The notes under the pieces: model-generated
The model's input: the letters and a program-made list of their open reading frames with translations, nothing else
Databases searched by the model: none
Told to the model about the DNA's origin: nothing
Program-made: the position numbers and the translations under genes
NCBI GenBank assembly: GCA_964016885.1
Contig: OZ024740.1
Coordinates: 366,172,001 to 366,236,000, forward strand
DNA: 64,000 bases
Direction: 5' to 3'
Origin: Eledone cirrhosa
Lineage: Eukaryota
Shown here: in pieces, positions 23,945-51,704 of the stretch
Layout: each line of letters begins with the position of its first letter
How positions within the stretch are numbered: the first letter of the stretch is position 1

Positions 23945-24277
23945 GAAGAAGAAGAAGAAGAAGAAGAAGAAGAAGAAGAAGAAGAAGAAGAAGAAGAAGA
24001 AGAAGAAGAAGAAGAAGAAGAAGAAGAAGAAGAAGAAGAAGAAGAAGAGTTTAGGCTCAAATCTATCCATTGACGTTCAATGTAACAGAAGTAAATACCT
24101 TTCTCTAAAAAGTCTCTTCTTCTTCTTCTTCTTCTTCTTCTTCTTCTTCTTCTTCTTCTTCTTCTTCTTCTTCTTCTTCTTCTTCTTCTTCTTATTATTA
24201 TTATTATTATTATTATTATTATTATTATTATTATTATTATTATTATTATTATTATTATTATTATTGTTATTGTTATT
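23945..24277. repeat. (GAA)n, spacer, (TTC)n, (TTA)n compound microsatellite
   Basis: Direct inspection. Confidence 0.97.
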
Positions 24278-26891
24278 CCTTGAATCTCAGTCATTGATGT
24301 TGGTTAACTGGAAAGTCCGTTGGATTGAATATCAAGCCACTACCTGCAGCCTCAGATATTCAGGACGTATCGGAGGGTTCTTGCCGTTCCAAGCAAGCAT
24401 GCCTTTTGAAGCGTTCCAAAAAGCGTGAAGGGGCCGATTTTCTTTAACCATCCCTGGAAACCTTTGGAGATAGTCCCCAGTGCGCCTATGACAATCGGGA
24501 TCACTTTGACTTCATGGCAGTTCCAAATCCTTTTCACCTCCCACTTTAGGTCCTGGTATCGGTTAATTTTCTCCCTCTCCTTCTCTTGTACTCTCGTGTC
24601 GAACGGGCAGGCCACATCCACAATCAGGCACGATCTTTTTTCTTTGTCCACAACCACCAGGTCAGGTCTATTGTGTTCCAGTTTTTTGTCCGTCTGTATC
24701 CTAAAATCCCACAGCACCTTCACCTGACTGTTCTCCATCACCGCCTCTGGCCTATGCTCATACCATTTCTCAGAATGTGGTAGATTGTTTACTTTGCACA
24801 GGTGCCAGTGGATCACCCTGCCCATCACATCGTGTCTCCAGCCCTTATAGTGGGTCTGGGCTAGGTGTTTACACTCGGACACAATGTGAGCCACAGTCTC
24901 CTCTCTCTCTCCACAGATCCTGCACAGTGGGCTAGCCTCCTCCTTGTAGATATGGTGCTTCAACCACTTCGTTTTGAGGGCCTGCTCCTGCGCAGCCATT
25001 AGCATTCCTTCTGTAGCCTTTTTGAGGTCTCCTCTTCTCAACCAGTTCCATGTCTGTGGATCTCTAAATTCAGTTTTCTCAAAGAAGGTACTATGAAGGG
25101 ATTTTCCCTTAAGGCTGCTCTTCCTCCTTGATGTTATTTCCTCCTTGGGTATCCCCTGGCCTACTGTCCCCTCCTTCAGTACAGCTCTGAGCATTGGCTC
25201 CTTACTATAGGTCACGTATTTGTATAGGTTGTTTTTCTCCATCTGAACACAGTCCTCTATGCTGATAAGACCTCTTCCACCCTCAGATCTCCTTAGGTAG
25301 AGTCTATCGACATCACTCCTCTTGTGGAACATGTTGTAGATAGTCAATAGCTTCCTAGTCTTCCTATCCATTTCTTTTTGTTCAGCAACATTCCATCTCA
25401 GAATTCCCGCACTGTACCTAATAATAGACACAGCTCGGGAATTTACTGCGCTTATGGCATTTCTGCTGTTCAGATGTGACTTCAATACGCTCCTTACTCT
25501 CCGAATGTATTCAGTTCTTAACAATTCCTTCATTTTTTTGTTCTTTATGCCATCAGCCTCCAGAACGCCCAAATACTTGTATCCTTCCTTAGAGTCAATT
25601 TCCTTTATCATCTCACCTGTTGGTATCTGGATCCCGTTACTTCTGCTCAATCTACCCCTCCTCATCACAATGACTCCACATTTACCAATACCAAACTGCA
25701 TACATATATCACTGCTGAAAATACGGACAGTGTCAACAAGCACATCCAACTCCTTCTCACTTTTCCCGAAGAGCTTAAGATCGTCCATGAAGAGGAGGTG
25801 ATTGATGGTAAGCTCTCCCCTTCCCAACTTGTATCCTGCTCTCACTTTTCGCAGCATAATGGTCAAGGGCATCAGGGCAAGGACAAACAACAGAGGGGAC
25901 AGGCTATCTCCCTGGAAGATACCTCTCTTGATCTTCACGCTTCCCAAGGATACTCCAGTTGATGTCAACTCTGTCTCCCAGGACCCCATACTCCTGCCCA
26001 GCAACTGTCTGATGTTATCTGCCACCCTGAAGATCTCCAGGCTTTTGGTGATCCAGGAATGAGGCACCATGTCAAATGCCTTTCTGTAGTCTATCCATCC
26101 CATGGCAAGATCAGTGTGTCTCCTCCTGCAATTCCCCATTACCATCTTATCAATAAGCAACTGGTCCTTTGTACCACGTGACTTCTTTCGGCATCCTTTC
26201 TGTTCGTCCGGCAACAAGTTGTTTGTGTGGAGGTGATGGTAGATTTCCTCAGACACAATGCTCGTCAACAGTTTCCACATTACGGGCAGACATGTGATAG
26301 GTCTATAGTTGGTAACATCATTACCCTTGATTCGGTCTTTCATTATCAGAACTGTGGTACCTTTTGTCAACCACTCTGGCACCTCACCCGACACCAAGCA
26401 GTCATTGAACATGGCCGTCAGCTTCGGGTGGAGGGATGTTAAATGTTTAATCCAATACCCCTGCACACCATCTGGGCCTGGTGATTTCCAGTTGGTTAGT
26501 TTTTTGGCTTGCCCCTTAAGAGTTTCAACTGTGATACTCAAATCAGTCTGTTGCTGTGCCTGCTCACCGATCTCCCTCTGTACTGTCTCAATCCACCCTG
26601 CCTGGGCATTGTGTCTAACATCCTGCTCCCATATTCCTCTCCAGAATGTTTTAGCTTGTTCCGCCCCAGGGATCAAGTCGTTGCCTCTTTCTTTCCCCTC
26701 AAGCTGTCCAAACAGCATCTTCTGGTTGTTGTCGAACATGCGGTTCTGTTTATACTGACTGACTCTGTTCTCGTATCGCCTGATTTTGGCACTCTTTGCT
26801 ACAATGCGTTGCTTCAATTCCTCTATGATAATATTTAGCTTTTTACTCCTAGTTTTGTATTTTATTTCCAGTCTATTTTTAGTGCCTATGT
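24278..26891 (-). mobile_element. Dong/R4-clade non-LTR retrotransposon family A, 5'-truncated
   Basis: RT + CCHC + restriction-like endonuclease; (TAA)n at both ends. Confidence 0.95.
24352..26817 (-). CDS. Dong/R4 family A RT-zinc knuckle-RLE protein (N-terminally truncated, frame open)
   Basis: NYRPITCL, DYRKAFD, QGDSLSP, FMDD, CRICGEREETVAHIVSEC, RHD, RPDLVVVD, KINRYQDL. Confidence 0.93.
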   Translation of the reverse strand: MKQRIVAKSAKIRRYENRVSQYKQNRMFDNNQKMLFGQLEGKERGNDLIPGAEQAKTFWRGIWEQDVRHNAQAGWIETVQREIGEQAQQQTDLSITVETLKGQAKKLTNWKSPGPDGVQGYWIKHLTSLHPKLTAMFNDCLVSGEVPEWLTKGTTVLIMKDRIKGNDVTNYRPITCLPVMWKLLTSIVSEEIYHHLHTNNLLPDEQKGCRKKSRGTKDQLLIDKMVMGNCRRRHTDLAMGWIDYRKAFDMVPHSWITKSLEIFRVADNIRQLLGRSMGSWETELTSTGVSLGSVKIKRGIFQGDSLSPLLFVLALMPLTIMLRKVRAGYKLGRGELTINHLLFMDDLKLFGKSEKELDVLVDTVRIFSSDICMQFGIGKCGVIVMRRGRLSRSNGIQIPTGEMIKEIDSKEGYKYLGVLEADGIKNKKMKELLRTEYIRRVRSVLKSHLNSRNAISAVNSRAVSIIRYSAGILRWNVAEQKEMDRKTRKLLTIYNMFHKRSDVDRLYLRRSEGGRGLISIEDCVQMEKNNLYKYVTYSKEPMLRAVLKEGTVGQGIPKEEITSRRKSSLKGKSLHSTFFEKTEFRDPQTWNWLRRGDLKKATEGMLMAAQEQALKTKWLKHHIYKEEASPLCRICGEREETVAHIVSECKHLAQTHYKGWRHDVMGRVIHWHLCKVNNLPHSEKWYEHRPEAVMENSQVKVLWDFRIQTDKKLEHNRPDLVVVDKEKRSCLIVDVACPFDTRVQEKEREKINRYQDLKWEVKRIWNCHEVKVIPIVIGALGTISKGFQGWLKKIGPFTLFGTLQKACLLGTARTLRYVLNI

Positions 26892-27184
26892 TTTATTATT
26901 ATTATTATTAGTGCCTATGTATTATTATTATTATTATTATTATTATTATTATTATTATTATTATTATTATTGAATGCCATGGTTGACGGAGGCTCGGCTC
27001 TGTAAGGTATAGTAATTTTTAACCGTTAAAACAATTGTAAATTGTTTAAAACTTGAACCAAATTGTTGATAAAGACACCCTCCTCCTCGTGAGAGGGGTC
27101 TTTCTGTCCATTATTTGGCCCTTCGGGGTTAAATAACCAGTTATTGGGGTTTTGTACCCAAAATTTCATTTTAAACAAAAAAAC

Positions 27185-51461: not shown

Positions 51462-51502
51462 ATTATTATTATCATTATTATTGTTATTATTATTATTATT
51501 AG

Positions 51503-51690
51503 GGCGGTGGATTGGCAGTATCGGTAGAGAGTCGGACGCCATGCTTTCCAGCATAGTTACGTCCCTTTACGATCTGAGTTCAAATCCCGCCGAGGTTAAC
51601 TTTGCCTTTCATCCTTACGGGGTCGATAAAATAAAGTACCAGTAATGCACTGAGTAATTGCTGGCCTTGTGCCTAAAGTAGAAACAATTA
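51503..51690 (+). mobile_element. Full-length tRNA-derived SINE
   Basis: A/B boxes; (ATT)n on both sides. Confidence 0.88.
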
Positions 51691-51704
51691 TTATTATTAT
51701 TCCT

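Follow-up and report, generated by a model that had tools for sequence, protein, structure and literature searches.

R1, which carries an apurinic/apyrimidinic-type endonuclease (APE), and R2, which carries a restriction-like endonuclease (RLE), both reside in the 28S ribosomal DNA and are familiar examples of retrotransposons without long terminal repeats (non-LTR) that share a multicopy target. Target specificity in such long interspersed elements (LINEs) is concentrated, according to the available portions of the reports cited here, in the early-branched, Tx1 and R1 groups (PMC4640811). TRAS1Bm and SART1Bm of Bombyx mori, both of the R1 clade, insert in opposite directions into the (TTAGG)n telomeric repeats, with the endonuclease setting the site (PMC7265360), whereas Dong of B. 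mori, DongAg and DongBg target TAA microsatellites (PMC3812793). Microsatellite targets are also described for the Tx1 clade, including (TC)n for Kibi and (TTC)n for Koshi (PMC3812793, PMC4494074), as well as (TTCC)n/(TTTC)n for crocodilian families, whose Tx1 group also mobilises the often tandem SINEU copies (PMC4494074). Octopus repeat surveys report Dong-R4 and L1-Tx1 elements as abundant or active and leave hotspots unexplained, with no targets given in the portions available (PMC13282606, PMC8967140). Here, we analyse a stretch of 64,000 nucleotides from Eledone cirrhosa (assembly GCA_964016885.1, contig OZ024740.1, positions 366,172,001 to 366,236,000, forward strand), hereafter the window, which contains an array of such elements. 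This array is probably one among many with a fixed polarity, where opposite strands of (ATT)n are occupied by a Tx1-like APE LINE, together with a short interspersed element (SINE) that it likely mobilises, and by two Dong-like RLE families, Dong-A and Dong-B; such arrays were likely built by repeated target-primed insertions, each leaving a tract on either side.

Self-comparison, lists of open reading frames (ORFs) and mapping against natural copies delimit an unbroken array of non-LTR retroelements at 24192-51701, about 27.5 kb. The minus strand carries three pieces of Dong-A and two of Dong-B, the plus strand three Tx1-like copies and a single SINE. All tracts between these elements read ATT on the plus strand, and the element order, strands and ATT polarity given in the original prediction were borne out by the same comparisons. 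The left edge is a compound (TCT)26-(TTA)28 microsatellite (24115-24277, plus), which is also the 3' tract of a 5'-truncated Dong-A (24278-26892, minus) with an open 846-aa frame containing reverse transcriptase (RT), zinc knuckle and RLE motifs and with up to 99.5% identity to other copies. A 5' junction common to this element and the next (26893-26971, plus), composed of (TTA)6, a 10-nt stutter of the Dong-A 5' end and (TAT)17, leads into a young full-length Tx1-like LINE (26972-32998, plus; ORF1 from ATG 27185, 698 aa, one CCHC knuckle; ORF2 from ATG 29317, 1139 aa, APE-RT-zf), which is 99.0-99.4% identical to copies at C1:55.42-55.46 Mb. An (ATT)18+ tract (32999-33066, plus) joins it tail-to-tail to a 180-nt Dong-A 3' fragment (33067-33246, minus), placed by mapping against natural copies, and is followed, after a (TAT)8 tract (33247-33276, plus), by a 5'-truncated, frameshifted Dong-A of a second subfamily (33277-34614, minus), 94.9% identical to the first. 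Beyond a (TTA)7 tract (34614-34634, plus), the 3' 650 nt of a Dong-B (34640-35288, minus) meet head-to-head, with no tract between, a Tx1-like copy lacking its first 167 nt and carrying two internal deletions (35280-40754, plus; 97% identity to the first). This copy shares an imperfect ATT tract (40756-40783, plus), tail-to-tail, with a near full-length Dong-B (40784-45690, minus; 1216-aa ORF at 44573-40923, about 1.1 kb of 5' untranslated region (UTR)). The stuttered junction that follows (45666-45800, plus) consists of AAAATCAAAAAC alternating with (TTA)5 and then (TTA)17, and stutters of element end and repeat are thus present at two 5' junctions, 26893-26920 and 45666-45747. An older Tx1-like copy (45801-51461, plus; 93%, a 310-nt internal deletion, broken ORFs), an imperfect (ATT)13 tract (51462-51501, plus) and a 185-nt SINE (51502-51686) with an (ATT)5 tail, whose last 24 nt resemble the Tx1 3' end, complete the array (SINE with tail, 51502-51701, plus).

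Two details of the original prediction require revision. It placed a spacer of about 1 kb beside the second Dong-B, but this segment (44760-45690) is the Dong-B 5' UTR and at six other loci runs on into the Dong-B body without a break, so that host DNA is ruled out (L063, 95.6% over 1521 nt; also L046, L066, L068, L075 and L084). Of the two junctions that it considered free of a tract, the one at 35286 stands (35280-35288) and is the sole such junction in the window, whereas the Dong-B 5' end meets the stuttered ATT tract at 45666-45800. Two further Tx1-like copies lie elsewhere in the window, at 5414-10242 (minus) and 18879-19711 (plus), each followed by an ATT tract and a SINE of the same polarity, and form separate small arrays.

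The same arrangement is found genome-wide. Exact sequence patterns, whose counts are lower bounds, retrieved 7591 Tx1 3' ends, 1604 Tx1 5' ends (2640 with one mismatch), 7338 Dong-A 3' ends and 3805 Dong-B 3' ends. Directly upstream of the exact-match Tx1-like 5' ends, in-phase TTATTATTATT is present in 1553 of 1604, and a search for the opposite-polarity repeat, in one phase, gave no match. At anchored loci, which are the first 30 matches of each search and all come from the start of C1, every Tx1 5' end has at least 18 bp of ATT (30/30), with all full-length junctions in one phase; at the 3' end at least 18 bp of ATT follow in 25/30, AAT in 0/30 and poly(A) in none of the 30, and (AAT)n is read at the 3' ends of Dong-A (30/30) and Dong-B (30/30) alike. 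The upstream tracts of 5'-truncated copies show that the elements are targeted to the repeat rather than merely tailed by it. Using a 90% identity cut and dropping alignment breaks internal to the element (15 Dong, 17 Tx1), the 62 remaining Dong 5' breakpoints have an AAT tract upstream in 46 cases, GAA in four, ATT in none and other sequence in 12, and the 11 Tx1 breakpoints have ATT in five, TTC in two, other sequence in four and AAT in none. At other loci (TTC)n/(GAA)n, frequently present beside ATT tracts and 5' junctions, is possibly a secondary target.

An unbiased sample of 100 evenly spaced 10-kb stretches on C1-C8 (1 Mb) contains 87 ATT tracts of at least 12 bp and 29 of at least 21 bp; among these 29, 18 touch Tx1 or Dong, three a SINE, one another repeat and seven nothing in the repeat library used. 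Tx1 covers 3.4% of the sample, Dong 1.9% (the two LINE groups together about 5%) and the SINE 1.7%. Flanks and orientation, tabulated in this way, are not random, the expected polarity being found for 14/14 Tx1, 16/16 Dong and 20/21 SINE cases, and together with the 1553/1604 Tx1 5' ends and the 60/60 Dong 3' ends this strongly supports the sharing of (ATT)n on opposite strands that had been predicted. When loci were instead anchored on tracts (n=30), 23 matched the repeat library and, by eye, two adjoined Tx1-like ends and five one further repeated end. A further abundant repeat has an end that abuts long ATT tracts (L181, L185, L186, L204, L205, L206, L210) and is likely an additional source of target tracts.

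The names Tx1 and Dong, as used here, are ones that we take from domain architecture, target and general knowledge of the clades and not from a tree with named references. The Tx1-like LINE has two ORFs, of which ORF2 contains PF03372 (APE, N-terminal), PF00078 (RT) and PF13966 (C-terminal zinc motif, zf-RVT), with the APE and YADD catalytic motifs, as commonly defined, present in the young copies. Its nearest match in the Protein Data Bank (PDB) is L1 ORF2p (E 1.5e-52 over residues 5-854), and R2 follows in the RT only (E 1e-21). ORF1 gave no Pfam match and has one CX2CX4HX4C knuckle at residue 389 of the frame; a CCHC zinc knuckle in ORF1 is a feature of the Tx1 clade (L1 group), as is a preference for particular target sequences, seen here in the ATT at 1553/1604 5' ends. 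At four loci (L129, L132, L133, L214), a Tx1 variant combines the same ORF2 with another 5' UTR and ORF1, the join lying at element nt 2262.

Dong-A and Dong-B have a single ORF in which RT is followed by a zinc knuckle and PD..D..K RLE motifs (again as commonly defined), without APE. R2 proteins are the only PDB matches of the Dong-B protein, the first 430 aa of which contain no CxxC, and it is the absence of N-terminal C2H2 zinc fingers that sets Dong/R4 apart from R2. Insertion with (TAA)n on the sense strand, a further criterion for Dong/R4, is observed at 60/60 3' ends and 46/62 5' breakpoints. Searches of homologs, clusters and atlas with the Tx1-like and Dong proteins returned no relative bearing a clade name. 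The RT regions of Dong-B and Tx1 are 22% identical and the Dong-A and Dong-B proteins 40%; the two Dong families have no BLASTN similarity in the ORF and share a 5' module of about 390 nt at 77% identity (window 45300-45690, minus; L066, L006, L093, L121), and 10 full Dong 5' modules include one clear and one weak pairing of the head of one family with the body of the other. A 55-nt segment resembling the SINE tail lies inside the Dong-B 5' UTR (window 44816-44870, minus). A public run under another organism label has high depth on Tx1 and Dong-B but almost none on the second Dong-A subfamily (examined at 33000-34327 of the window) at 97% likeness, which hints at a lineage-specific burst.

The SINE shares the target and polarity of the Tx1-like LINE. 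In an end-anchored comparison of the last 24 nt, a length too short for a BLAST match, it agrees with Tx1 at 15-17 positions, as opposed to seven or eight with Dong. ATT flanks its copies at 22/56 5' and 51/85 3' ends and AAT at three and six, with a background of 2%, a bias weaker than that of the LINE, and most of its ATT tails are short (median 6 bp, with 4/84 reaching 18 bp). Neither ARAGORN nor Rfam detected a tRNA-derived head. The SINE is likely mobilised by the Tx1-like machinery.

Clustering and adjacency were assessed from match lists on C1:1-55.5 Mb and the 30-locus samples. Neighbours agree in polarity in 94/96 pairs within 7 kb, 29/37 at 7-15 kb and 57/112 beyond 15 kb, and 171 of 246 ends fall into 10-kb clusters, compared with 21 in shuffles. 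The original prediction proposed testing Tx1-Dong adjacency against a shuffle, and a uniform one is far exceeded: a Dong 3' end lies tail-to-tail within 250 bp of 16/100 Tx1 3' ends, with none on the same strand, the mean being 0.03 in 1000 uniform shuffles. The excess disappears, however, against a shared-target null, which is the fairer comparison and where the tail-to-tail rate of 10/30 compares with Dong rates at random long tracts of 9/47 (p=0.18, the nine counted by eye) or 7/29 (p=0.57). A special affinity between Tx1 and Dong was therefore rejected; the two clades draw on a common resource without having to seek each other out. Three regions chosen for match density contain clusters of 20 kb, 32 kb and about 90 kb of the same polarity, and the array in the window is thus not unique. 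The largest (C1:37102000-37195000, L131-L140) combines Tx1 of three 5' types, Dong-A, Dong-B and SINEs in one polarity and is interrupted by other DNA, including Penelope-like ORFs in a gap at C1:37.16 Mb, which do not abut tracts and were rejected as members of the guild.

Arrays also grow by local duplication. At C1:55441837-55449557 (L126-L127), an 807-nt Dong-B fragment flanking a Tx1 is exactly duplicated (100%) with an identical breakpoint, a single case. The Tx1 between the two fragments was not copied from its neighbours and is not a hybrid of them (33 and 58 differences), and unequal crossover between flanking Tx1 copies as well as 3' transduction from a neighbour were rejected as the cause of the duplication. 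It is possible that the duplication was made at insertion between two tracts, with a target-site duplication of about 850 bp.

The pattern is real, genome-wide and explained by known chemistry. The geometry of target-primed reverse transcription predicts a nick in the (AAT)n strand by the Tx1 APE, with priming on AUU repeats that the Tx1 RNA would gain by readthrough just past the AATAAA signal; for the Dong RLE it predicts a nick in the (ATT)n strand, with priming on AAU repeats. Ends of truncated cDNA join the upstream tract, often via 2-5 nt of microhomology; microhomology of at least 2 nt is observed at 12/24 Dong-A and 8/15 Dong-B junctions, with 9-11% expected. Each insertion would turn one tract into two, and tract length, the gain of which is observed, may be restored by repeat copied at insertion, by later slippage or by both. 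A locus would in this way gain targets as elements accumulate, used by both clades without recognising each other, while the SINE would exploit the Tx1 machinery and seed new tracts, and insertion-linked duplication of a neighbour may occasionally add to growth. The three Tx1 copies in the window are only 93-97% alike and have private deletions, which argues for growth by successive independent insertions, and summed tract per array reaches 264-447 bp, whereas no run in 1 Mb is longer than 78 bp. For the self-amplification proposed in the original prediction, these two observations speak in favour, whereas an insertion that writes a fresh tail is not distinguished from later slippage or from a choice of long tracts. 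A split-tract (Polya) model with 300 founders yields 135.5 occupied loci, 75.6 singletons and 12.3 clusters of four or more, as against 133, 75 and 13 observed, and on such modelling positive feedback is likely, although not proven.

Several observations weigh against the reading of the arrays as the product of targeted, self-renewing insertion. The anchored loci are not a random draw, and among them ATT is limited to 6 bp or less at 5/30 Tx1 3' ends. In some cases a copy lies in (TTC)n or (ACT)n; locus L021 breaks the polarity rule with an AAT tract at its 5' end (L021 and L030 are below 90% identity and outside the breakpoint count); and two head-to-head junctions, at window position 35280 and at L077, have no tract. 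Short SINE tails are numerous, so that a preference of the elements for long tracts could give the impression that tails are made. With 200 targets, a fixed-pool model (141/71/7.2) comes close to the fit of the split-tract model, and the founder number of the latter was fitted and is below the tract density of the 1-Mb sample, so the growth model is not uniquely supported. Finally, four public runs over 33000-52900 gave very high depth on the elements in short pieces only, with no empty allele or spanning long read among them.

If both clades simply inserted wherever one of a limited number of long and accessible (ATT)n tracts was available, arrays would be favoured sites and no positive feedback would be needed. 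This would agree with the near fit of the fixed pool and with a Tx1-Dong rate not above that of Dong at random long tracts, but we consider it unlikely, since the tract DNA per array is larger than any single tract seen, so that tracts must be renewed, and internal tracts still measure 15-96 bp after about ten insertions. That element-tract units were multiplied by tandem duplication or unequal crossover, as the chief mode of array growth, is suggested by the doubled Dong-B fragment at C1:55.44-55.45 Mb and by a 210-bp direct repeat in the window. For the window array this origin is largely refuted by the divergence (3-7%) and private deletions of its Tx1 copies and, in general, it is improbable: five tandem Tx1 at C1:55.42-55.46 Mb (mutual identity 98.7-99.2%) are no closer to one another than to the window copy, and the Tx1 amid the duplicated fragments is not a hybrid.

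Tracts might instead be tails or heads carried by the elements, which would make orientation trivial and targeting unnecessary. The full-length Tx1 5' junctions, which have at least 18 bp of ATT and all agree in phase, do look as if the RNA began with AUU repeats; however, truncated copies, unable to carry a head, mostly have an upstream tract, which refutes the idea for Dong, and neighbours across a tract are highly non-random, leaving this account very improbable overall. We give hardly any credence to an assembly artefact in which reads were wrongly joined at short ATT tracts: among the short pieces examined, none of the public contigs or reads spans the array, but the tracts are 15-80 bp long, the window is free of N and lies within a 443-Mb sequence, each copy can be told apart from the others and the same grammar is seen throughout the genome.

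Targeted insertion with renewal of the target remains our preferred reading, and a broader formulation of it can be offered tentatively, with about as much to be said against as for it: (ATT)n would be a self-renewing niche of APE and RLE LINEs and SINEs that write most long ATT tracts, from opposite strands, in polarised arrays of up to about 90 kb, in which 5' promoter modules pass between families with 40% protein identity and a whole neighbour can be duplicated by one insertion through nicks in two different tracts, with a target-site duplication of about 850 bp.

Other repeats in the window include (AGA)35, which forms a long inverted repeat with the facing (TCT)26 immediately to the left of the array (23944-24193). 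Rfam gave sub-threshold matches only, nine miRNA models on this (AGA)n/(TCT)n pair and one snoRNA. A dispersed repeat at 58500-59028 (also L062, L080, L091 and L103) ends in (TTA)4, usually followed by (TA)n, and also takes Dong insertions, and dispersed units of 400-460 bp occur several times beside (ATGT)n tracts at 12076-17461 and 59431-60439, together with a 416-bp direct repeat.

These findings offer a concrete explanation of why a large animal genome has retrotransposon hotspots and of where much of one of its microsatellite classes comes from, and they add (ATT)n to the list of Tx1-type targets. They also provide a natural pair of unrelated endonucleases predicted to act on opposite strands of one repeat, whose strand choice and target renewal are directly testable with the young intact copies, and imply that AAT microsatellite markers in this lineage would often lie at element junctions. 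A literature search of open papers, excluding Repbase and supplements, found no report of ATT-targeting Tx1 elements or of mixed Tx1/Dong arrays. What is new is (ATT)n as the target of a Tx1-type element, and the division of one dispersed microsatellite by strand between an APE and an RLE clade.

Among known systems, R1 and R2 resemble the present one in combining an APE and an RLE element on one multicopy target, but each of them has its own fixed site within a gene, both are oriented alike and insertion destroys the site, whereas here the target survives on both sides. Dong of B. mori, DongAg and DongBg, as far as the available portions of their description go, share with our families the TAA target, the single ORF with RT, zinc knuckle and RLE motifs and the AAT on the sense strand; unlike them, two families with 40% protein identity, named Dong here without a tree, co-occur, share a 390-nt 5' module and interleave with an APE LINE. 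Kibi, Koshi and the crocodilian Tx1 families are likewise APE-type LINEs with a microsatellite target, and some copies here lie in (TTC)n, but the target is (ATT)n, the repeat of Dong on the other strand, which is not among the targets described for them in the portions available. The closest precedent, on the same partial basis, is the TRAS1Bm/SART1Bm pair, in which two LINE families also insert into one short repeat in opposite directions. Both of these are APE elements of one clade with a telomeric target, whereas the E. cirrhosa arrays combine APE and RLE elements, only 22% identical in the RT region, in a dispersed microsatellite at thousands of interstitial loci.

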